Source: a virus
Lineage: Duplodnaviria; Heunggongvirae; Uroviricota; Caudoviricetes
Direction: 5' to 3' (one strand)
Virus record (IMG/VR): IMGVR_UViG_2609459861_000003
Location: 1 to 14,270 of that record
DNA length: 14,270 nt
The notes beneath the pieces were generated by a model that was not told the DNA's origin, did not search any database, and saw only the letters and a list, made by a program, of their open reading frames with translations. How positions within the stretch are numbered: the stretch's first letter is position 1; each line of letters opens with the position of its first letter. Below are positions 1-11,709 of the stretch, in pieces. The translations under genes and the position numbers were made by a program.

Positions 1-1173
1 TCAGGCCTTATGGTGGAAATAATCACTCAGGCGGGAAAACATGCTGCCTTCCCCGACAGATTCCAGGGTAACCAGCGGCCAGTGCGCCACCTGTTTATCA
101 CGGTCGTAAAGTTCAATTTCCCCTACCCGCTGATGGGAGCTAATTGGCGCGGTGAGCTCTTTACCATCAAGGGTATATTTGGCTTTGATATGTGGAATTT
201 CGGCTTTCGGTAGCACCATCCAGAACTCTTGTTCCGTTCCCAGGGCGATATTTTCTTTATCGCCATACCAGATGCGTTCCGTACCGACCTTTTTCCCACG
301 GTGCAAAATTTGCACCGTAGTAAAGTTTTGTTGCCCCCAACGCAGTAATTTTCTTGCCTCTTCCTCACGACCTTTTGCACTGTCAGCCCCCATTACCACT
401 GCAATGAGACGACGCTGCCCATCTACAGCCGAAGCAATGAGGTTAAAACCGGCACCAGAAGTATGACCCGTTTTCAGGCCGTCAACATTCATGGTTTTAT
501 CCCACAATAACCCGTTACGGTTTTGCTGAGTGATACCGTTCCAGGTGAGGCTTTTCTCACTGTACATATGATAAAACTCGGGCTCGCCGTGGATGATAGC
601 GCGAGAAAGCACGGCTAAATCATAAGCCGAGCTATGCTGGCCAGGTGCATCCAGACCATGCACTGTTTCAAAATGCGTATCCTTGAGATGCAGCTTCTCG
701 GCATAGTTGTTCATCATTTCAACAAACTGCCGTTGCCCACCGGCAATATAGTCAGCCAGAGCAACACAAGCGTCATTTCCGGAATCCACAATTAAACCAC
801 GGCTTAAATCACGTACCGATACGCGATCGCCCTCTTTCAAAAACATCAGTGAAGAACCGACAAACACCGGATTATCTTTCGCCCACGCATCACGCCCCAC
901 GGTGACAATATCGTCTGGCGTAATGCGATGACTATCGATAGCGCGATCCACGACATAACCCGTCATCAGCTTTGTCAGGCTGGCGGGATTGCGCTGTTGA
1001 TGCTCATTACCCGCGGTGAGAATCTGACCGGTGGTGTAATCCATCAGTACCCAGGACCCGGCTTGAATCTGTGGAGGCTGAGGTGAAAAAGGAATGTTTT
1101 CCGCCGCAAAACCAGACGATAAGTTAAAAACGAACAAAGAAGCGGCAATAATAAGACGGCGTTTCAACAGCAA
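1..1173 (-). CDS. dacD: D-alanyl-D-alanine carboxypeptidase DacD (PBP6b), S11 serine peptidase
   Basis: Complete 390-aa ORF with stop at 1-3. N-terminal signal-peptide-like segment; SxxK (SLTK), SGN and KTG active-site motifs of class A low-MW PBPs. Distinct from DacA/DacC as recalled. Divergent neighbour is sbcB, as at the E. coli dacD locus. Confidence 0.85.
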   Translation of the reverse strand: MLLKRRLIIAASLFVFNLSSGFAAENIPFSPQPPQIQAGSWVLMDYTTGQILTAGNEHQQRNPASLTKLMTGYVVDRAIDSHRITPDDIVTVGRDAWAKDNPVFVGSSLMFLKEGDRVSVRDLSRGLIVDSGNDACVALADYIAGGQRQFVEMMNNYAEKLHLKDTHFETVHGLDAPGQHSSAYDLAVLSRAIIHGEPEFYHMYSEKSLTWNGITQQNRNGLLWDKTMNVDGLKTGHTSGAGFNLIASAVDGQRRLIAVVMGADSAKGREEEARKLLRWGQQNFTTVQILHRGKKVGTERIWYGDKENIALGTEQEFWMVLPKAEIPHIKAKYTLDGKELTAPISSHQRVGEIELYDRDKQVAHWPLVTLESVGEGSMFSRLSDYFHHKA

Positions 1174-1375
1174 ACCCTCAGGAGTTTCAAATAGCTGTTC
1201 TTTTTACGGAAATACTTATGAACTGGCTGGAATAAAGTGCAAGAAAATGTGACTACCCTCCCATTTTTATCTGACATGATCTGTTGCCACTCGCTGTCAA
1301 ATTATCGCGCTAAAGCTGATTAGCACGGTGATATTTGATACTCTGGCAGACAGCAGAAATAACGGATTTAACCTA

Positions 1376-1438
1376 ATGATGAATGACGGTAAGCAACAAT
1401 CTACCTTTTTGTTTCACGATTACGCGCAATACCCCTGA
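1376..1438 (+). pseudogene. sbcB: Exonuclease I (sbcB) 5' end interrupted by prophage insertion
   Basis: ATGATGAATGACGGTAAG... encodes MMNDGKQQSTFLFHDY, matching the SbcB N-terminus as recalled (next residues should be ETFG). Here the frame continues AQYP then stops at 1436-1438, so host/phage junction is at about 1424/1425. Confidence 0.6.
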
Positions 1439-1810
1439 GAACCGCCATGAACAAGGGTTTCATGATTTGTGATTTTAGTTTGGTACGCAATTTGGTACAC
1501 AACACAATTTTCACTTCAGCGGGTAGTCATCAAACTCACCATAACGAGCATCGTTAATGATGTATGTGATCACCACAAACATCACATCTGGAATAGTTCC
1601 GTTTTCATGCGCAGGTATTTGTTCACGCCTCCCTTTCTGCAAATCCTAAAGATGAGATTTTGGGGTTTTGGGATATCTTTTATCCTCAGTTCTCTATCCA
1701 TTATGCAAACCAGTAATGAACCATCACCGTGTGATAGTGAGGCATCTGCCACGATAAGCGCAGAGAAATGATGCAGTGGTGGGCGGACTGGCTGGACGAA
1801 AAGACACAGT

Positions 1811-1844
1811 AATCAAAAGCGGCAGGCCACATAAAAAGCCTGCC
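1811..1844 (-). terminator. Putative intrinsic terminator of the LexA-controlled operon
   Basis: Inverted repeat GGCAGGC / GCCTGCC (1821-1827 and 1838-1844) with a 10-nt loop, directly after the stop at 1845-1847; followed on the minus-strand RNA by GCUUUUGAUU. Confidence 0.45.
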
Positions 1845-2162
1845 TTATACCGCTACGCTGTCACTTCTCACATCGATGATGGTGTGTGTCACCACGCCGG
1901 CGACAGTGATATCATCCAGGGCCTCGCCTTCAATCGCTTCGCCGTCTTCAGTAATCAGGGCCCTCCCTCTCAACGTGGCAAGCTCAGTCCCGCCGCCGTG
2001 CTGGATCAGAACCTGACTACCCTGCTTTGGCTTCAGGGAGATATCCAGCACAACATAACCGCCATCCCTTTCGAAAACGCGGGTGTTAGGACCAACATTG
2101 CATATCGAGTTAACGGACAGTCGCTGCTCGACGTAGTCCGCTGCGGGTGAAGGAAAGCCCAT
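1845..2162 (-). CDS. UmuD'-like S24-family protein (HumD-like); Ser/Lys catalytic dyad apparently absent
   Basis: 105 aa starting MGFPSPAADYVEQR, which matches UmuD immediately after its Cys24-Gly25 self-cleavage site (recalled UmuD: ...CGFPSPAADYVEQRIDLN...). C-terminus DDITVAGVVTHTIIDVR parallels UmuD DTLDVFGVVIHVVKAMR. No GDSM serine motif and no aligned catalytic Lys visible by eye. ATG overlaps upstream stop by 1 nt (TAATG). Confidence 0.6.
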   Translation of the reverse strand: MGFPSPAADYVEQRLSVNSICNVGPNTRVFERDGGYVVLDISLKPKQGSQVLIQHGGGTELATLRGRALITEDGEAIEGEALDDITVAGVVTHTIIDVRSDSVAV

Positions 2163-2401
2163 TACAAAACCCTACCCATGTTAGCCATCATCCACAAACG
2201 GTTTTCGCTATGGTCGGTGGTTTTGTCGACAAAGTACGTCTGCTCTCTAGATATCCACGCATTAGCCTCTGAGTCGGTAAAGTGCAGCCCACGCCGGAGC
2301 AGCGCTGACACAAAATCCTTTGTATGCAGATACTGGTAGCCTTTGGAGTTGCGCAATACCGACTCGCGGAAAGCCTGATAGATGTCTGACTGACGGTGCA
2401 T
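2162..2401 (-). CDS. Hypothetical 79-aa protein, first gene of LexA-box operon
   Basis: ATG at 2401-2399 preceded by GGAGGG with 6-nt spacer; LexA box 19 bp upstream; translationally coupled to the downstream UmuD'-like gene. No family recognised. Confidence 0.55.
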   Translation of the reverse strand: MHRQSDIYQAFRESVLRNSKGYQYLHTKDFVSALLRRGLHFTDSEANAWISREQTYFVDKTTDHSENRLWMMANMGRVL

Positions 2402-2419
2402 GATCTTCCCTCCGATGAT

Positions 2420-2439
2420 TACTGTTTTTATATACAGTA
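2420..2439 (-). promoter_or_regulatory. LexA (SOS) box overlapping the promoter of the 79-aa/UmuD'-like operon
   Basis: Minus strand reads TACTGTATATAAAAACAGTA = CTG-N10-CAG with perfect TACTG/CAGTA arms and AT-rich centre (consensus TACTGTATATATATACAGTA). Flanked by a 10-bp inverted repeat TGATCTTCCC / GGGAAGATCA. Confidence 0.7.
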
Positions 2440-2620
2440 GTTTTACTGTAAGGGAAGATCAATAGCTGTTGCGACTATCAATGGTAGTAACCGGAAATGT
2501 TACTGAATCATATGACTTTGTTGGCGTTCAGCCAATGAATTCCATCTGTTGAAGTATTGGCTACGGCACTGGAAGGTTCATTGGTTTGAATGCTCTGCCA
2601 TCAAAGCCTAGTGGTGATTA

Positions 2621-2872
2621 TTAATCAATTATTGAGAAATTGCTCAGGTATGTTTCTTTAGCCAAAGAAAACACATCATCAGGTTCTCCACTGAGAGTTA
2701 CTACGTTGAAATCGAATATTTTATTTTCCTTGCCCTCTCCATCATAAATTCCGATAGCACTGATATAAAGATCTCCATCTTTCACGGTGTCATCTATGTA
2801 GGCAAAACATCCTACCTTCGATTCGCCATAGCGAGAGTTCGTCGATATGTAATCACCTTTCATGTAAGTCAT
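2621..2872 (-). CDS. Hypothetical 83-aa protein, AT-rich, coupled to the tailspike gene
   Basis: ATG at 2872-2870 overlaps the tailspike stop (ATGA overlap); ORF track gives an alternative TTG start at 2884. No family recognised. Confidence 0.45.
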   Translation of the reverse strand: MTYMKGDYISTNSRYGESKVGCFAYIDDTVKDGDLYISAIGIYDGEGKENKIFDFNVVTLSGEPDDVFSLAKETYLSNFSIID

Positions 2873-4203
2873 AGTGTTCCCCAAGCAGCTCTGAAGATGG
2901 AATATGCGTATGCGCTATTTAAATAAGATGTGTAGTCTCCGGCAATATAGTCCTGACTGGATACATCCCATTTCCTTACTACAGCATAGGATGATGTGAC
3001 GCTATAAACTAAATAATAATAACCGTTTATTAGCATGTATTCACCGGCAGACAGTAGCGAGCTCCCCATGGCTATTACTGTTTCTCCAGAAACAATCGTA
3101 TTGTATAGCGAGTAAGCAGGCCCCCAGCCACTGTTGAATGGCAAATTGCCTGTAGCCCGAATGAGGTTATCTTCCCCAGTCGTAGCGGAATACATCATGT
3201 ACGGCGCGGTGAATGAACAGCGATAGTACCTAGTGTTGTTTGCGGATGGCCAACCACGAGGTGTCGTGTTGTACGGTATGCCATCTGTCTGAACTCCGTT
3301 GTAGACCTGCTGAACCATTCTTGTATAGACACATCCGTTAGATTTTTTGGGAACGTAAAGAAAACACCTGCCAATGCTTTCATGGTTATTCACCCCAATA
3401 TCAACGTAAATCATCCCTCCAGTTGTCACAAAGGAGTCAATACAGTTTTTTAGTGTGTTGTTATAAACGCGAGTGTAACCAACTGCATTCTTCCAGCGGA
3501 TGCCCTGGCTGGAGGCAATATCCGCCCCTGTTATCGTGCATCCAATTACAGAACAATTATACGCAGCTGTATTTATCCGGTTAAAGAAAACACCAGAGTT
3601 ACTAAATCCTGAAATACGGCACGAAGATATTGCCACGTTTCCGCATGATTCGATGAACACTCCTACGCTTACATCACGGATAGTGTTATTACTAACAACA
3701 ACATCCTCCGCAACTCCCTGTCCAGATTCGTCAGTTACGTTACCAAAGATATCAATGCCATTATCACCGCAGGAGGCCACGGCACATCCCGTAATGGTCA
3801 TCCCGTTGGGGCGTTCACACTGAATGCCAATATATTCAACGTTGTGAACGTAGCAGTTCATAATTCTTGAGTTAGAACAGCCATAAACCGTATTGTTAGC
3901 TCGGCGTAAATAAATCCCTCCAGAAGTGCTATCTATCGCCTTAACGTTATCAATAGTGACATTATCCGAGTCCAAGATATTAATGCAGGTAATCCCCGTT
4001 CCGGCAGCGGTGCCACGGCTGCCGTTAAGCGTGATCCCCTGAATCTTGCAGTTATCGGCGGCGCCTTCCCAGTTTGTAATGATTGCGCCGCTGGCTGAGC
4101 CAGTAAAATTGCCATCAAGCGTGATTGCTCCGCCGCCCATCAGTGTTACACCACTACGCATACACAGCGCACCTCGACCCGCAGCAACCTCACCAGGTAT
4201 CAA
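2869..4203 (-). CDS. Tailspike/tail-fiber protein fragment with right-handed parallel beta-helix (pectate-lyase-like); N-terminal virion-binding part missing
   Basis: 444-aa ORF rich in Gly/Asn/Ser/Thr/Val/Ile/Cys repeats typical of beta-helix rungs (e.g. NCYVHNVEYIGIQCERPNGMTITGCAVASCGDNGIDIFGN). Frame is open upstream to 4266 with no ATG and no RBS; first listed start is TTG. Abuts the helicase fragment. Confidence 0.65.
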   Translation of the reverse strand: MIPGEVAAGRGALCMRSGVTLMGGGAITLDGNFTGSASGAIITNWEGAADNCKIQGITLNGSRGTAAGTGITCINILDSDNVTIDNVKAIDSTSGGIYLRRANNTVYGCSNSRIMNCYVHNVEYIGIQCERPNGMTITGCAVASCGDNGIDIFGNVTDESGQGVAEDVVVSNNTIRDVSVGVFIESCGNVAISSCRISGFSNSGVFFNRINTAAYNCSVIGCTITGADIASSQGIRWKNAVGYTRVYNNTLKNCIDSFVTTGGMIYVDIGVNNHESIGRCFLYVPKKSNGCVYTRMVQQVYNGVQTDGIPYNTTPRGWPSANNTRYYRCSFTAPYMMYSATTGEDNLIRATGNLPFNSGWGPAYSLYNTIVSGETVIAMGSSLLSAGEYMLINGYYYLVYSVTSSYAVVRKWDVSSQDYIAGDYTSYLNSAYAYSIFRAAWGTL

Positions 4204-4601
4204 AGTTGAATTAGGATTGAGAGTAACGGAGAATTCACCTCCAATGAGAATATTGGTTGGGCCGCTTCACGAACCTGCATTGCATAGGCAACGATGTTTG
4301 CGGCGCTTGGCGTGTTCTTTGCGATCTCAGCGATATAAGCAAAACCGCCAACAGACGCCGTTAACGATTTACGCTCCAGTTCATCGAAAAGCGTCAGGCC
4401 ATCTACTGGCTTTTGCTCCCGGTGCATTCTGGTTATCTCTTCGAAAAGAATTTTGTGTGGTCGGCTGTAAAATGAATCAGGCTTCAGCATCGCCAGAACT
4501 TTCTGGACGCGCTCACTGCTGTCATCATCCAGAAGCAATCCACCAATCACCGCCTGCTCTGCCTCGATGCTATGGGGCGGCGCATAAAAATTATCGGTCA
4601 T
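4200..4601 (-). pseudogene. DnaB-family replicative helicase, N-terminal fragment only (P22 gene 12-like), truncated at deletion junction
   Basis: MTDNFYAPPHSIEAEQAVIGGLLLDD...GGFAYIAEIAKNTPSAANIVAYA matches the DnaB N-terminal domain (E. coli DnaB PPHSIEAEQSVLGG...GGFAYLAELSKNTPSAANISAYA). Only about 115 helicase-like residues, then unrelated sequence and a stop at 4200-4202. RBS GAGG before ATG at 4601. Confidence 0.75.
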
Positions 4602-5481
4602 CGTGTTCACCCTCACGAACTTTCAGGTAGGTATTGTCGTTAAGCAGGAAATCAAATCCCTTTTTGTGCCAGACGGTTCCGCGCTGATGGTTTGGGCGCT
4701 CTTCGAACATCCATCGGCAATTTTCGCCTACGTAGCTCAAATAATTTCTCCAGTCCTGCATCGTGAACCCATGCCCGTCAAGCTGGCGGGTTATCACTCC
4801 GGCTTTGCGCCAGAACGTTCGGATCTGGTTTTTACGCTTGTCATTCAGTGCGCGGATTTTTGGCGCTTCAGGAAGGATTTCGTGGTAAGCATCGACAACA
4901 TCCTGACAGCTAACGGAAGGTTTTTTCTTGTCAGACTTTTTGTCTGCTGCGGTACTCTCTAATACGTCAGTATTAGAGATATTATTTATATTATTGTTTA
5001 TGGACAACCGTTGGACAACCGTTGGACAATCTCCGCTGAGAGCCGCGCCATTACTGGTGTTTGCGTTGGACAACCGTTGGACAACCGTTGGACAATTTTT
5101 TGCCTGAAAATCGTCATATTTAACGATTGTAAACAGGCTAAATTTCTTCCCCATCGAGCAAATATTAAGCATCCCTTTCGACTCAAAAGTCCGCAATAAG
5201 CTCCGAACTTTGTTGTCGGGGATGAATGTTTCTCTGACCAGCGACGGGCGTCCAGTTATCATCTGACCGCGATCAACAGTTATCGGCCCGATATCCGTAT
5301 TGACGACAGTAGATTCGTGATTAGCCTTGAGGATTAAGTGAAGCCAAAGATGTACTGCCTGAGAGTCCTTATAGAGCCTGCTGTCCATAAACTGGCGGTG
5401 TATAGAGACATACCCCATACTGGATGCCTCCTGATGTTGTACAGGGTTATGCCTGTAATCAGCTAACTTAACGACGCCCAT
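4591..5481 (-). CDS. Replication initiation protein, lambda O / P22 gp18 analogue, with origin iterons inside the gene
   Basis: 296-aa ORF with GGAG RBS before ATG at 5481; located cII -> O -> helicase as in lambdoid phages; contains the iteron cluster. Sequence unlike lambda O. Confidence 0.7.
   Translation of the reverse strand: MGVVKLADYRHNPVQHQEASSMGYVSIHRQFMDSRLYKDSQAVHLWLHLILKANHESTVVNTDIGPITVDRGQMITGRPSLVRETFIPDNKVRSLLRTFESKGMLNICSMGKKFSLFTIVKYDDFQAKNCPTVVQRLSNANTSNGAALSGDCPTVVQRLSINNNINNISNTDVLESTAADKKSDKKKPSVSCQDVVDAYHEILPEAPKIRALNDKRKNQIRTFWRKAGVITRQLDGHGFTMQDWRNYLSYVGENCRWMFEERPNHQRGTVWHKKGFDFLLNDNTYLKVREGEHDDR
4960..5097. repeat. Phage replication origin: two clusters of three 11-bp iterons (GTTGGACAACC, GTTG/CAAC dyad) plus adjacent AT-rich unwinding region
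   Basis: Direct repeats at about 5000-5029 and 5065-5095 with exact 11-bp periodicity; AT-rich stretch 4960-5000 immediately downstream in the direction of O transcription. Confidence 0.7.
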
Positions 5482-6095: not shown

Positions 6096-6305
<210 letters not shown>

Positions 6306-6322
6306 TTAGTACATGCAACCAT

Positions 6323-6386
6323 TATCACCGCTAGAGGTAAAATAGTCAACACGCACGGTGTTAGATATTTATCCCTTGCGGTGATA
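6323..6386. promoter_or_regulatory. OR1-OR2-OR3 operators with divergent PR (toward cro) and PRM (toward cI)
   Basis: OR1 TATCACCGCTAGAGGTA (6323-6339), OR2 CAACACGCACGGTGTTA (6347-6363), OR3 TATCCCTTGCGGTGATA (6370-6386). PRM -35 TAGATA / -10 TAGATT with leaderless cI ATG at 6397. Confidence 0.9.
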
Positions 6387-6393
6387 GATTTAA

Positions 6394-7110
<717 letters not shown>

Positions 7111-7258
7111 TCGGCAAGGTGTTCTGGTCGGCGCATAGCTGGTGAAAAAATTATTTAATGCGGTGTATTGGCTGATTGTAACCCCATGTAACATCTTGCC
7201 GTCACCATTTCGGTGGTTAGATTTTTAATAAAAAAACAAATGTATAGCAAGGTTTTTT

Positions 7259-7738
7259 ATGGATAAAATTAATTACCCACCCCTGTTTGAGCCAGGGTTC
7301 CATGACATGGATGAAGCTGGATTAAAATCGTATTGTGTCGATTGCTTTCCTTCATCATCCAGGCGAGGCATGCTATACTGTAATTTTATACAGCTACTCG
7401 AATCTATTCGAGAATTATCTGCTCAATATGGCTGTTTTACAGAAATATGGGTTGATGGTTCATACACCACGTCTAAACCAGAGCCTGATGATATTGATAT
7501 TTTGTTGGTATGTGACTATAGCAATATAAACTCAATACCTGTCATGCTTCGGGGCCGCGTCGATAATTTGCTTGACCGAAACTACATCAAACAAAACTAC
7601 AAAATTGATGTCCTACTACTCATGAAGAATTTAGATGACCCTAACTATGATTATGAGTACTGGCGTAGCTACTGGCGCGGTTGGTTTGGTTTTGATCGCA
7701 GTGAAAACCCGAAAGGGTTAGTGAGGATTTTTTTATGA
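7259..7738 (+). CDS. Nucleotidyltransferase-fold protein (Pol-beta-like NTase motif), first gene of rex-position cassette
   Basis: 159 aa; helix then FTEIWVDGSYTTSKPEPDDIDILLV, i.e. hG[GS]-x9-DxD with G67-S68 and D78/D80, and a third acidic residue in KIDVLLL (D117). Stop overlaps next start (ATGA). Confidence 0.6.
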   Translation: MDKINYPPLFEPGFHDMDEAGLKSYCVDCFPSSSRRGMLYCNFIQLLESIRELSAQYGCFTEIWVDGSYTTSKPEPDDIDILLVCDYSNINSIPVMLRGRVDNLLDRNYIKQNYKIDVLLLMKNLDDPNYDYEYWRSYWRGWFGFDRSENPKGLVRIFL

Positions 7739-8667
7739 ATGATAAATCAATGTTTAAAAATTGCGATAAACGCATTGATTTCATTCAAAAAGAAGTCGAT
7801 GCAATGAAGCAAAACAAAACCAGGTCCTTTGCTGACATGCTTCTTTATCGCTCCATGGATTCTCATCTGAGCGATTTGAAGGCCGAAAAATTAAAGCAAG
7901 ATAGTCGGCACCCACTTATCGATTTTTTTGAGCTGCGGCTGAAAGGCTCTGAGGTTGACTTTGGCTCTATTCCTTTAGAGCTGCTTGGGGCTATTTCAAC
8001 AAATCTTGCAGCGCTAATACAAAGAGCAACACACAAAATTGCCTCAGGCAAGGACTCAAAAAAAGTTCCCTACGACGTGAAAAGCTCCTTAAACCTCAGG
8101 CTGGCTGATTTATCCCCTGGGTCTACAAAATTGGGCGTCACCTTCTCTACAGGAATAGCAGAATTAGTAGAAACAGTACCCAGCAAGGCTGTAAAAGGCA
8201 TATTCGATTTGTTGTTAAGCGATGACGACAACAACTTCATGAATCACGTCGCTGAAATTGGATACAATTCCACTGTAAGCCTTAAGAGAATCGTAGAGGA
8301 ATGCGATAAACACAACTTAACATTTGATGCAAGTTGGACCGGTCCATTTAGTAATGGCACCAAGGTGGCAACTATTGACTCCAATAAAATTAAGTACTTG
8401 GTGAGTAGACTTACATCAACCATTTCATCCCCTCCCATTACTGAAACGGTTACAGGCGAACTGGTCGTTCTATCCAAATATGGGAAGCTGGAGCTTGATG
8501 TTGGTGGTGAACATTTAAAGGCTTCCTATCCGATTGAAATGCTAGATTTAATACAAAAAAAACACAAGGTCGGACAGATTGTTTCTCTTTTAGTGGAGAC
8601 TACTGAGATTCACAATGATCGCATAGGTCTGTACCGTAAAAACCATCTTGTTAAATCGGTTCTTTAA
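7735..8667 (+). CDS. Hypothetical 310-aa protein, second gene of rex-position cassette
   Basis: Translationally coupled to the NTase gene; AT-rich by eye; no transmembrane segment or known catalytic motif recognised. Confidence 0.6.
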   Translation: MNDKSMFKNCDKRIDFIQKEVDAMKQNKTRSFADMLLYRSMDSHLSDLKAEKLKQDSRHPLIDFFELRLKGSEVDFGSIPLELLGAISTNLAALIQRATHKIASGKDSKKVPYDVKSSLNLRLADLSPGSTKLGVTFSTGIAELVETVPSKAVKGIFDLLLSDDDNNFMNHVAEIGYNSTVSLKRIVEECDKHNLTFDASWTGPFSNGTKVATIDSNKIKYLVSRLTSTISSPPITETVTGELVVLSKYGKLELDVGGEHLKASYPIEMLDLIQKKHKVGQIVSLLVETTEIHNDRIGLYRKNHLVKSVL

Positions 8668-8674
8668 TATCTCA

Positions 8675-8700
8675 CCCGGCCACCGCGCCGGGTTTTCTTT
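8675..8700 (+). terminator. Intrinsic terminator closing the cI/cassette operon (tIMM-like)
   Basis: CCCGGC-caccgc-GCCGGG hairpin followed by TTTTCTTT. Confidence 0.7.
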
Positions 8701-8846
8701 GCCTCACGTTCGCCCCAAAACACATAACCAATTGTATTTATTTGAAAATTAATAGATACAACTCACTAAACATAGCAATTCAGATCTCTCACCTACCAAA
8801 CAATGCCCCCCTGCAAAAAATAAATTCATATAAAAAACATACAGAT

Positions 8847-8909
8847 AACCATCTGCGGTGATGAATTATCTCTAGCGGTGTTGACATAAATACCACTGGC
8901 GGTGATACT
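8847..8909 (+). promoter_or_regulatory. OL3-OL2-OL1 operators and PL promoter
   Basis: OL3 AACCATCTGCGGTGATG (8847-8863), OL2 TATCTCTAGCGGTGTTG (8867-8883), OL1 TACCACTGGCGGTGATA (8891-8907). PL -35 TTGACA at 8881-8886 and -10 GATACT at 8904-8909; near-identical to lambda PL as recalled. Confidence 0.85.
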
Positions 8910-8977
8910 AAACACATCAGCAGGACGCACTACTCACCAGGGCGGTGAATATACAACGATTCAAACATGAATCTACG

Positions 8978-8992
8978 GCGCTGACAAAGCGC
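8978..8992 (+). promoter_or_regulatory. nutL boxB hairpin, P22 type
   Basis: GCGCTGACAAAGCGC: 5-bp stem with GACAA loop, matching the P22 boxB RNA as recalled, about 65 nt downstream of the PL start. Confidence 0.6.
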
Positions 8993-9059
8993 AATAACTG
9001 GTCAGACGAAGAATTCATTCGTCATATGAAAGAATTAATCGGTAACGAAGGAGATATTC

Positions 9060-9230
9060 ATGTCACTTGCAACCACAGTGAAGGAGAGCAAGTTACAGAG
9101 ACGCATGTACACGCAGCAGGCGTTAATGTATCGCCAGAAGGGAGATCGTGAAGGTGTTCGCGTATTTTTAAATGCGGCAAAGACTGAAGTATTAAATCAG
9201 CGTTATTTCCTTGGGCCATGTCCATTCTGA
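9060..9230 (+). CDS. Hypothetical 56-aa protein immediately upstream of erf (position of P22 arf)
   Basis: Not in the ORF track (<60 aa). Strong RBS GGAGAT with 6-nt spacer before ATG at 9060; ends 11 nt before the erf ATG. Sequence not arginine-rich, so not an N-like antiterminator. Confidence 0.45.
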   Translation: MSLATTVKESKLQRRMYTQQALMYRQKGDREGVRVFLNAAKTEVLNQRYFLGPCPF

Positions 9231-9240
9231 GAACAATCAT

Positions 9241-9846
9241 ATGAGCAAAGAATTTTACGCAAGACTGGCAGCTATTCAGGAGAATCTGAACGCGCCAAAG
9301 AATCAGTACAACTCATTCGGAAAATATAAATACAGAAGCTGCGAAGACATTCTTGAAGGCGTTAAGCCGTTACTGAATGGCCTGTTTTTATCAATCAGCG
9401 ATGAAGTTGTGTTGATTGGTGATCGGTATTACGTGAAAGCCACGGCAACTATTACCGATGGCGAAAACAGTCATACGGCAACCGCTCTTGCACGAGAGGA
9501 AGAAAGCAAGAAAGGGATGGATTCTGCACAAGTTACGGGAGCTACAAGCTCTTATGCACGCAAGTATTGCCTCAATGGTTTGTTCGGCATTGATGATGCG
9601 AAAGATGCAGATACAGACGAGCATAAACATCAGCAGAACGCAGTAGCAAAGCAATCAAAACCATCACCTACACCTGAACAGGTTCTAAAAGCATTCACTG
9701 ACGCAGCAATGCAGAAAAACACCGTGGAAGAGCTTAAACAGGCGTTCGCCAAAGCGTGGAAGATGCTCGAAGGCACACCGGAGCAGCACAAAGCGCAGGA
9801 CGTTTACAACATCAGACGAGACGAATTAGAAGGAGCGGCTGCTTAA
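9241..9846 (+). CDS. erf: ERF-family single-strand annealing protein
   Basis: 201 aa from ATG 9241 (track gives upstream TTG at 9211); ERF-like core GKYKYRSCEDILEGVKPLL...DRYYVKATATITDGENSHTATA; location in the PL operon. Confidence 0.75.
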   Translation: MSKEFYARLAAIQENLNAPKNQYNSFGKYKYRSCEDILEGVKPLLNGLFLSISDEVVLIGDRYYVKATATITDGENSHTATALAREEESKKGMDSAQVTGATSSYARKYCLNGLFGIDDAKDADTDEHKHQQNAVAKQSKPSPTPEQVLKAFTDAAMQKNTVEELKQAFAKAWKMLEGTPEQHKAQDVYNIRRDELEGAAA

Positions 9847-10850: not shown

Positions 10851-11011
10851 GAGGACTTGCATACAATCCCGGCATTCTTCCGGCAGAAATGATTATTCGC
10901 CAACGCGTAAAGCCAATGCCATCGAGAGAGGAATTGCTTAAGAGAAATTCTTTTCCATCAGTGAATCAAAACAAATATCTGAATGCAATGTGGCGGAGTG
11001 GGAAGAAATGA
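10847..11011 (+). CDS. Hypothetical 54-aa protein (not in ORF track)
   Basis: ATG overlaps the upstream stop (ATGA) and its own stop overlaps the HNH gene ATG (ATGA): coupled on both sides. Confidence 0.35.
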
Positions 11012-11709
11012 AACAAATGTCACTAATTGAGATGGATGGTTTTCTGAAAGGTAAATGCATCCCAAGTGATTTAAAGGTTAACGAAACAAACGCTGAATAT
11101 CTGGTGCGTAAATTTGCTGAAGCGGAGGCCAAGTGCGCGGCGCTGACTGACTTATTTGGCGATGTGAAAGAGATTTTTGGTTTTAAGTATCGCTATTTCA
11201 TCACCTCAAAGGGGCTCATTTTCTCATTGGCCTCTGGAGAACTAAAGCAATTAAACCCAACCATGCGCGGTAAGAACAGAAATCAGTATTTATTCGTTAG
11301 GCTGGAGTTTGAAGGAAAACTAAAAGGCGTGAACATCCACCGATTAGTTGCTGAAAACTTTCTCGGCCCTAAGCCTTCTGATGAGCACGTAATTAACCAT
11401 ATAGACGGGAATAAACAAAACAATGATGTTTCAAACCTGGAGTGGACGACGGTAGCGGGCAACACTCAGCACGCATATAGAACAGGTCTGGCCGGGGGAA
11501 GAAAACACGGATCGTATAAAGGTCCAGTCTGCGCTGAGAACGAGGAAGGTTTTGGGTATGTGTTCTTTGACAGCAAACAGGCCATCGAGGCTGGATTTAA
11601 CCCAAACTCAATCAGGGACGCTGTTGTTAAGCCATGGAAGAAAGTATTCGGATTCTATTTTAGTCGCATCAATACCGATGCCCAGCTTCGCAAAGGAGGC
11701 AACCAGTGA
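11008..11709 (+). CDS. HNH endonuclease (homing-endonuclease-like)
   Basis: 233 aa from ATG 11008; HNH motif region [31 protein letters not shown]. Confidence 0.75.

Follow-up and report, generated by a model that had tools for sequence, protein, structure and literature searches.

A minimal nucleotidyltransferase and a predicted OB-fold partner, matching the candidate defence system PDC-M63, in the rexAB position of a lambda-immunity prophage

The repressor-downstream cargo slot

The window analysed here, that is the whole stretch of 14,270 nucleotides, carries a lambda-type immunity region in which the genes downstream of the repressor are not those of lambda. The OR operators, with PR on the minus strand and PRM on the plus strand, are located at 6297-6396 (a promoter scan placed a PR-like site, TTGACT-17-GATAAT, at 6349-6321), and are followed on the plus strand by an open reading frame for a lambda-type cI repressor of 237 amino acids (6397-7110, matching lambda cI at 37940-37227), a 31 bp post-cI junction (7111-7141), an AT-rich leader (7142-7258), gene A (7259-7738), gene B (7735-8667), a rho-independent terminator equivalent to lambda tIMM that was detected by a terminator scan (8674-8693), and the OL operators with promoter PL (8820-8909; TTGACA-17-GATACT at 8881-8909). 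Comparison with lambda (blastn against NC_001416) established that window positions 6201-7141, encompassing OR, cI and 31 bp 3′ of the cI stop, correspond to lambda 38136-37196 at 98.2% identity, while positions 8674-8939, which begin with the final base of the rexB stop codon and take in the terminator, OL and PL, correspond to lambda 35825-35559 at 95.1% identity. The intervening 1,532 bp (7142-8673) exactly replace rexA, rexB and their leader (lambda 37195-35826), and, like rexAB, are flanked by cI and tIMM and read in the direction of cI. A sequence-only reading of this DNA had described lambda-like flanks enclosing, instead of rexAB, two AT-rich and translationally coupled genes for proteins of 159 and 310 amino acids, and this description was confirmed by the open reading frames, by their ATGA overlap at 7735-7738 on the plus strand and by a GC content of 39.6% for the cassette as against 45.1% for the window.

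The region 7142-8673 constitutes a cargo cassette of 1.5 kb, exchanged horizontally and located in the slot downstream of the repressor in a lambda-immunity prophage. Its left recombination boundary is the post-cI junction, where lambda homology stops at 7141 and which is 100% identical in lambda, 434, HK544, VT1-Sakai, SfI and further phages, and on the right lambda homology restarts at 8674 (lambda 35825). A copy with 99.8% identity is present in phage mEpX1, and among 5,426 complete E. coli genomes 18 carry the cassette; near-identical cassettes were found behind approximately ten different repressor types, while variants at 55%, 46% and 40% identity also hold the repressor-downstream slot. 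At one related locus (L007) a divergent B variant is followed by a near-identical terminator hairpin. Elsewhere the same lambda-type flanks enclose other cargo, namely rexAB, BstA-C, Nmad5 or KilA-N. RexAB and BstA are both found in the cI-N interval, which has been described as a mosaic region and defence hotspot whose expression presumably comes from the strongly active promoter of the repressor (PMC8585504).

The leader (32.5% GC) is specific to the cassette, is identical in mEpX1 and provides an AAGG ribosome-binding site ahead of gene A. The sequence-only reading had suggested that this AT-rich spacer may hold its own promoter, yet no promoter was found by scanning 7142-7258, and promoter-like sites in the region were no commoner than in shuffled sequences. 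A pLIT analogue within gene A was likewise considered and set aside, as promoter-like sites did not exceed the shuffle expectation. A weak hairpin with a T-run is located between cI and gene A at 7198-7217; a structured RNA in the spacer was not supported (fold z-score of -1.48), and an Rfam scan of the whole window matched no family. By analogy with lambda, from which PRM activity is carried over, the OR/PRM region would act as the promoter region of a cI-A-B transcript, such that in the lysogen A and B would be co-transcribed with cI from PRM up to the retained tIMM-like terminator.

A predicted nucleotidyltransferase with intact catalytic residues and its soluble partner

Gene A encodes a 159-amino-acid protein (DUF6932, PDC-M63A, phrog_9194) which matches Pfam DUF6932 (PF22014) with 87.3 bits and an E value of 1.7e-24 (gathering threshold 27), as do all 40 aligned homologues, and which matches the PADLOC model PDC-M63A (PDLC04744) over residues 1-158 of 159 with an E value of 1.8e-41. 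The arrangement characteristic of Pol-beta-type nucleotidyltransferases, hG[GS] followed after 9-13 residues by [DE]x[DE] and a carboxylate on a later strand, is represented by G67-S68, D78-I-D80 and D117. This signature, previously noted in the single sequence, withstood alignment of the 40 homologues, as G67, S68, D78 and D80 are invariant down to 35% identity and the third carboxylate, D117, is at least 90% conserved. The same alignment revealed a conserved C-terminal family motif, R136-SYWRGWFGF, located after the catalytic residues. Weak matches to NTP_transf_2, Polbeta or DNA_pol_B_palm were obtained for 23-26 of the 40 family members, and the predicted structure has the minimal nucleotidyltransferase alpha/beta fold and matches MNT antitoxins. 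The maximum Kyte-Doolittle mean over 19 residues is 1.25, indicating that A has no membrane segment. With its catalytic residues intact, A belongs among the minimal nucleotidyltransferases of the MNT/Pol-beta superfamily and is predicted to be active.

Gene B encodes a 310-amino-acid soluble protein (PDC-M63B, phrog_6603) that matches the PADLOC model PDC-M63B (PDLC04749) over residues 23-304 of 310 with an E value of 7.5e-45, and is also matched by five other M63B models. In its predicted structure an N-terminal helical hairpin and an alpha/beta middle domain without a match are followed by a C-terminal OB fold (approximately residues 235-309). The earlier statement that the 310-residue partner has no assignable motif stands for Pfam, where B had no match and nothing was consistent across all 37 B homologues, but gives way at the C-terminus to this predicted fold. 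Foldseek searches of the PDB returned no full-length match for B (every E value was above 0.01), and no solved structure matched B outside the OB fold; sequence searches of the PDB with single proteins and profiles returned nothing meaningful, and NCBIfam gave zero matches. The B family comprises roughly 266 clusters. A profile search with the middle domain of B alone (residues 58-150), seeking other architectures, yielded three fragments. The only positions of B that are invariant family-wide are G129-S130; its conserved positions are mostly glycine and aromatic residues and may be purely structural. As had been stated from the sequence, B has no membrane segment (maximum 19-residue hydropathy of 1.38). 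With a pI of 6.9 the predicted OB domain lacks a basic character, and OB folds bind proteins as well. No recognisable nuclease, membrane segment, TIR, SIR2 or HEPN effector domain was detected in either protein. A single match of B to the HEPN RNase motif Rx4-6H, at R39-x4-H45, is not conserved in its homologues, and a HEPN identity was rejected on this basis.

Pairing, genomic context and candidate status

A search for related loci was seeded with the A alignment, and A and B are adjacent at all 88 related loci examined. Gene B comes after gene A at every one of the 8 metagenome or genome loci and the 80 IMG/VR loci; at the 8 loci where spacing was measured, the genes overlap by 4-14 nt or are separated by at most 10 nt. 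Both genes are under strong purifying selection (dN/dS of 0.06-0.07). At 48 of 77 evaluable viral loci (at least 62%) the pair is preceded, at a distance of no more than 700 nt, by an S24 repressor gene of the same orientation, while HTH-only CI-like repressors precede it at other viral loci. The pair also occurs outside prophages, at one locus near a YoeB/Phd toxin-antitoxin pair and a type I R-M system and at another near a type ISP R-M enzyme and an integrase. At two loci (L012 and L013) A and B lie in a same-strand array with a Lar-like restriction alleviation gene, radC and an orphan N6/N4 methyltransferase gene. The latter arrays would suit a counter-defence or anti-restriction role, in which the pair benefits the phage or mobile element at entry rather than protecting the lysogen; we regard this as very improbable, as most phage copies directly follow the repressor gene on its strand, the side expressed in the lysogen, rather than lying in early lytic operons.

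The sequence-only reading had presented the pair as fitting none of the nucleotidyltransferase-containing systems that it considered, whereas the defence scan that it proposed, PADLOC, identifies PDC-M63 at once. [quoted passage not shown] Guilt-by-association candidate lists are known to contain false positives. PDC-M63 originates from a computational survey (Payne et al., bioRxiv 10.1101/2024.01.29.577857; cassette CAS_00189), in which PDC candidates as a class were picked for lying within BREX, DISARM and type I R-M loci. The only published test of PDC-M63 that our literature search retrieved is a deletion of PDC-M63AB from its native prophage in E. coli NILS69, which left infectivity of 10 virulent dsDNA phages unchanged (PMC12409345); searches on DUF6932, on nucleotidyltransferases combined with OB folds and anti-phage activity, and on mEpX1 retrieved no functional characterization. 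The earlier proposal of a candidate lysogen-expressed two-gene anti-phage module is supported by the PDC-M63 listing and by the repressor slot, and is weakened by the negative deletion test.

Two alternatives gain from that test, and we consider both unlikely, to a similar degree. In the first, the pair is a non-defence accessory (moron) of the lysogen which modulates the lysis-lysogeny switch, as lambda RexA reportedly does for the bistable switch (PMC12894663), or which modifies a host molecule and thereby alters physiology. This is countered by the occurrence of the pair outside prophages, adjoining R-M and toxin-antitoxin loci, and by its listing among candidates chosen for embedding in defence systems, while A, at 159 residues against approximately 250-260 for ANT enzymes, is without their C-terminal substrate-binding domain. 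In the second, the pair, with B as toxin and A as an MNT-like modifier, would serve chiefly to keep a prophage or mobile element stable by post-segregational killing and not to exclude phages. The modifier-first gene order and translational coupling, as in MNT-HEPN, are consistent with such addiction, as is the presence of the pair on non-phage mobile or chromosomal islands, where it adjoins another toxin-antitoxin pair. Against this, B is not a HEPN protein and carries no toxin-like catalytic motif, the pattern of an acidic A and a basic B, which would be typical of toxin-antitoxin pairs, is not conserved (median pI of B, 6.4), and the strong preference for the repressor-downstream position, as for RexAB and BstA, fits a benefit to the lysogen better than simple addiction; moreover, toxin-antitoxin and abortive-infection roles can coexist.

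Possible function and relation to known systems

The reading that we favour, with a probability of roughly 0.55, is that the cassette encodes a lysogen-expressed phage-exclusion, abortive-infection or toxin-antitoxin-like module, in which A and B would form a complex, the OB fold and middle domain of B would recognize a target or cue, and A would deliver the output by nucleotidyl transfer. Two tentative versions of this mechanism appear to us about equally likely. According to the first, a switch resembling type VII toxin-antitoxin systems, B would be nucleotidylylated by A, for which the family-invariant Gly129-Ser130 loop is a candidate acceptor, and the modified B would stay inactive until infection upsets the balance. 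According to the second, the A-B complex would be an effector resembling a terminal transferase, adding nucleotides to a nucleic-acid 3′ end on phage DNA or RNA, or on tRNA, that is chosen by the OB fold of B. It is a bolder and rather unlikely proposition that PDC-M63 is a genuine exclusion system with a new mechanism, be it restraint of B through Gly-Ser nucleotidylylation or OB-guided 3′-end capping, which would act mainly against temperate phages and those rich in ssDNA intermediates; phages of these kinds were outside the challenge panel published for NILS69 (PMC12409345).

The predicted OB fold of B and the link between PDC-M63 and the repressor slot are contributed by this analysis. The cI-rexAB-tIMM unit of lambda is the best-studied prophage defence slot, and an active cassette would represent a third mechanistic class within it, after the RexAB membrane channel and BstA, and would extend the type VII toxin-antitoxin concept of a nucleotidyltransferase that modifies its partner to a non-HEPN, OB-fold partner. 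If inactive, the cassette would instead supply a calibration point for the trust placed in guilt-by-association candidate lists. It is directly testable, being 1.5 kb in size and present in lambdoid phages compatible with E. coli K-12, and owing to the lambda-type flanks an isogenic swap of rexAB for A and B in lambda should be easy.

The sequence-only reading had recognized that the pair does not fit CBASS, AbiEii/MenT, MNT/HEPN or Hailong, and this assessment is borne out here. CBASS, Hailong and AbiE/MenT share with the cassette a Pol-beta-superfamily nucleotidyltransferase as core component, however A matches no CD-NTase HMM in PADLOC and is half the size of CD-NTases, and B carries none of the effector or sensor domains of CBASS (SAVED, STING, TIR or nuclease). 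In Hailong a DNA signal is bound by the partner protein. A nucleotidyltransferase encoded with a nucleic-acid-binding fold formally fits such logic, with A producing a cyclic or linear (oligo)nucleotide that B binds through its OB fold as receptor or effector. The differences from CD-NTases and CBASS effectors nevertheless make this improbable, albeit less so than a counter-defence role, and HalA of Hailong is a transmembrane ion channel while B has no membrane segment. With regard to AbiE/MenT, A is much smaller and has no AbiEii or DUF1814 match in PADLOC or Pfam, the nucleotidyltransferase gene comes first here whereas the antitoxin is upstream there, and B lacks the wHTH of the AbiEi antitoxin. 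The HEPN-MNT type VII toxin-antitoxin systems also encode a small MNT-type Pol-beta nucleotidyltransferase first and in translational linkage to its partner, and it is their MNT antitoxins that A resembles in predicted fold; they differ in that A possesses the additional conserved C-terminal RSYWRGWFGF motif, and in that B is predicted to combine an alpha/beta domain with an OB fold instead of forming a HEPN helical bundle.

Two further systems are related to the cassette by position. BstA is found in the same position downstream of the repressor in lambdoid and P22-like prophages, and other E. coli strains carry a gene for the BstA C-terminal domain between these lambda-type flanks, yet BstA is a single protein of KilA-N/BstA architecture without homology to A or B. 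RexAB shares the identical slot from the cI stop to tIMM, the two-gene operon, the cI strand and presumably expression from PRM in the lysogen. It differs in sequence, as BLASTP comparisons of A with RexA and of B with RexA and RexB gave E values of at least 0.14, and as neither A nor B was matched by the PADLOC RexA and RexB models, which recovered the lambda proteins at 9e-110 and 8.6e-61, respectively. RexB is moreover a polytopic membrane effector, whereas A and B have no membrane segment, and RexA, unlike A, is not a nucleotidyltransferase. PDC-M63 itself is matched by the cassette in both HMMs, in gene order and in adjacency, with no structural difference.

The rexAB replacement and its prophage setting

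Direct blastn comparison of the window with lambda (NC_001416) established two aligned blocks, of which the left (window 6201-7141, lambda 38136-37196, 98.2% identity) contains cro, OR and cI plus 31 bp beyond the cI stop, while the right (window 8674-8939, lambda 35825-35559, 95.1%) runs from the last base of the rexB stop codon via the terminator and OL to PL. As the two blocks end at 7141 and start at 8674, the 1,532 bp of window 7142-8673 replace rexA, rexB and the leader (lambda 37195-35826) base for base. The insert encodes two proteins on the same strand as cI (6397-7110, 237 aa in the ORF list), namely the 159-aa nucleotidyltransferase (NTase) A (7259-7738) and its 310-aa partner B (7735-8667); their genes overlap in an ATGA stop/start at 7735-7738, with a GTGAGGA Shine-Dalgarno sequence just before. 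The GC content of the insert is 39.6% as compared to 45.1% for the window, and a consensus scan located PR at 6349-6321, PL at 8881-8909 and a GC-rich terminator at 8674-8693. A and B show no resemblance to RexA or RexB, and the PADLOC models for these two match lambda's own proteins and neither A nor B. The sequence-only reading had described lambda-like flanks and a rexAB slot filled by two other AT-rich, coupled genes, as was found here, while its suggestion of a separate promoter in the spacer received no support from a promoter scan. The replacement of rexAB is real and has clean limits, and what took its place is a catalogued, unvalidated candidate system. Both genes sit between cI and the terminator, on the strand expressed in the lysogen, and, by analogy with lambda, are presumably transcribed from PRM together with cI. 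The cassette leader, which separates cI from gene A, contains a terminator-like hairpin with a T-run (7198-7217) that could attenuate PRM read-through; the whole spacer RNA folds no better than shuffled sequences (z -1.48).

The right arm of the prophage (window 1-4616) looks defective. The replication helicase ORF (4200-4616, minus strand) comprises the DnaB N-terminal domain only and abuts a 444-aa tailspike-like right-handed beta-helix ORF (2869-4203); a host D-Ala-D-Ala carboxypeptidase gene (Peptidase_S11/PBP5_C) occupies 1-1173, with no nin, lysis or head genes in between. On the other side lambda homology stops short of nutL, at 8939 (lambda 35559), and from 8994 onwards the window is 99% identical to mEp213, mEp043 and HF4s. 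No N gene was found between PL and the ERF recombinase gene (9211-9846), the 68-aa ORF at 8945-9151 having no Pfam match, and a 239-aa ORF (10990-11709) inside the early-left (recombination) operon carries an HNH_3 endonuclease domain.

An NTase and its coupled partner

Over its full length protein A matches Pfam DUF6932 (87 bits, cut-off 27), and it also belongs to phrog_9194. An alignment of 40 sequences, down to 35% identity, shows no variation at G67, S68, D78 or D80 and conservation of D117 at 90% or more, a pattern which is the Pol-beta NTase signature already proposed from the sequence and which, at this level, shows the active site to be intact. The same alignment revealed a near-invariant, family-specific C-terminal motif, R136-S-Y-W-R-G-W-F-G-F...R...E..K-G, and 23-26 of the 40 members weakly match NTP_transf_2, Polbeta or DNA_pol_B_palm. 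A fragmentary protein on a 569-bp contig (P0167) matches both CYTH (PF01928) and DUF6932, and may join a triphosphate-tunnel enzyme to an NTase of this family.

Protein B corresponds to phrog_6603. Its AF2 model (pLDDT 83.6, pTM 0.72) comprises an N-terminal helical hairpin (~10-56), an alpha/beta part (~62-231) and a C-terminal five-stranded barrel (~235-309). Foldseek is in local agreement (probabilities 0.94-1.0) and gave no full-length PDB match. Neither Pfam nor NCBIfam has a family for B, but the earlier statement that it carries no assignable motif does not hold for the C-terminus, which is predicted to form an OB fold; no membrane segment was found in B, as had been noted, or in A. Among 49 diverse homologues only G129-S130 are invariant, forming a beta-hairpin turn in a lower-confidence region of the model, while the remaining near-invariant positions are mostly glycine or aromatic, plus the acidic E/D63, with no obvious catalytic constellation; B's conserved residues could be purely structural. 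Residues 62-146, the most conserved region, weakly match PDC-M32A (E 3.4e-5), another unvalidated PADLOC candidate, which hints at a common domain; a homology search with this domain alone returned fragments only.

A and B form an obligate, translationally coupled pair. Eight independent loci from genomes or metagenomes have a B homologue (22-25% identical to the B of the window, E 1e-20 to 1e-32) directly after a DUF6932 gene, with an overlap of 4-14 nt or a gap of at most 10 nt, and in an IMG/VR scan (108 viral contigs) B directly follows A in 80/80 loci kept. Scanning 1.84 billion representative proteins in full with an HMM recovered only 266 B-family clusters, and the 150 listed are, fragments apart, ~300-355 aa long and free of domain fusions. 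Comparison with an 87%-identical variant gave dN/dS values of 0.067 for A and 0.059 for B, showing that both are under purifying selection. Divergence from the related locus L034 is uneven (dN 0.10 for A, 0.30 for B), which suggests recombination between the A and B modules.

Exchange among phages and other neighbourhoods

An S24-peptidase repressor lies upstream, on the same strand and within 700 nt, in 48 of 77 evaluable viral loci, and in several more the repressor is of the HTH-only CI type and is accompanied by a divergent cro-like gene. Variants of 55% (E. coli Rac-like prophage), 46% (Providencia) and 40% identity hold the same slot. Cassettes at least 98% identical to that of the window (A compared; IMG/VR loci L018-L032) follow ~10 S24 repressor clusters (<90% identity), implying recent exchange among heteroimmune lambdoid phages. 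The 31-bp post-cI segment (7111-7141) is common to many heteroimmune phages, and the tIMM-like terminator (ACCCGGCCACCG[C/T]GCCGGGTTTTCTTT; 8674-8693) also lies 3' of the 55%-identical B variant (L007, 6943-6970), so that the two border even a divergent variant; both look like conserved recombination junctions for cargo exchange, and together with the near-identical cassettes therefore point to movement of the cassette between heteroimmune phages by junction recombination. Other cargo found between the same lambda-type cI and PL flanks in E. coli genomes H44-H54 includes rexAB, an Nmad5-family gene, a BstA C-terminal-domain gene, a KilA-N gene and several hypotheticals. The cI-N interval has been described as a mosaic hotspot with RexAB and BstA, presumably served by a strong repressor promoter (Owen et al., PMC8585504).

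Outside phages the pair adjoins a YoeB/Phd toxin-antitoxin (TA) pair and a type I R-M system, a large DUF4011 helicase-nuclease, or a type ISP R-M enzyme and an integrase. In a peat/soil viral lineage (L012 and L013, 1449-10450) it lies in a same-strand array with a Lar-like restriction-alleviation gene, RadC and an orphan N6/N4 methyltransferase. This array is an anti-restriction-type neighbourhood, and it is here that a counter-defence role would find its place, though we regard such a role as very improbable.

Probable function and relation to known systems

HMM and defence-system scans, as the sequence-only reading had proposed, matched A to PDC-M63A (E 1.8e-41) and B to PDC-M63B (E 7.5e-45) in PADLOC-DB, so that its view that the pair does not fit other NTase-containing systems stands for validated systems only. 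The pair is therefore already known as a candidate and would not surprise a specialist running PADLOC. PDC candidates were chosen for embedding in BREX, DISARM or type I R-M loci, and PDC-M63 is cassette CAS_00189 (count 45 in the supplement; bioRxiv 10.1101/2024.01.29.577857). Of 5,426 complete E. coli genomes, 18 contain the cassette, and phage mEpX1 carries a 99.8% identical copy in which both genes are still hypothetical in the 2025 record.

From its context we read the pair, at slightly better than even odds (about 0.55), as serving the lysogen, most probably by excluding superinfecting phages or aborting their infection. Against this, removing PDC-M63AB from the prophage that natively carries it in E. 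coli NILS69 left infectivity unchanged for 10 virulent dsDNA phages, though the panel held no temperate or ssDNA phages (PMC12409345); the literature searched contained no other functional test. A non-defence function in the lysogen, to be weighed beside this deletion, is considered unlikely. In the absence of any classical effector, the output is probably the NTase reaction as such. A nucleotide-signal system appears distinctly improbable. In one version of the exclusion reading A would nucleotidylylate B in a type VII TA-like switch, the G129-S130 loop being the candidate acceptor, as favoured by the MNT-like fold of A and by a gene order that puts the modifier first. A pure addiction TA module, which would share these features, is an improbable alternative. 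In the other version the pair would act as an OB-guided terminal transferase on phage or host nucleic-acid 3' ends. The two fit about equally well; against the reading count the non-basic OB domain of B (pI 6.9), the chance that B's conserved positions serve structure alone, and the failure of A and B to show an acidic/basic asymmetry that is conserved. The cassette lends itself unusually well to testing in an isogenic lambda background, and its NTase/OB-fold mechanism may be new.

Among known systems, the cassette occupies the position of RexAB without being homologous to it, and lacks what defines CBASS, Hailong and AbiE/MenT. Its NTase and operon logic resemble those of HEPN-MNT, but the HEPN component does not fit. 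It belongs to DUF6932 and to the Pol-beta NTase superfamily, and, agreeing in every testable respect, to PDC-M63.
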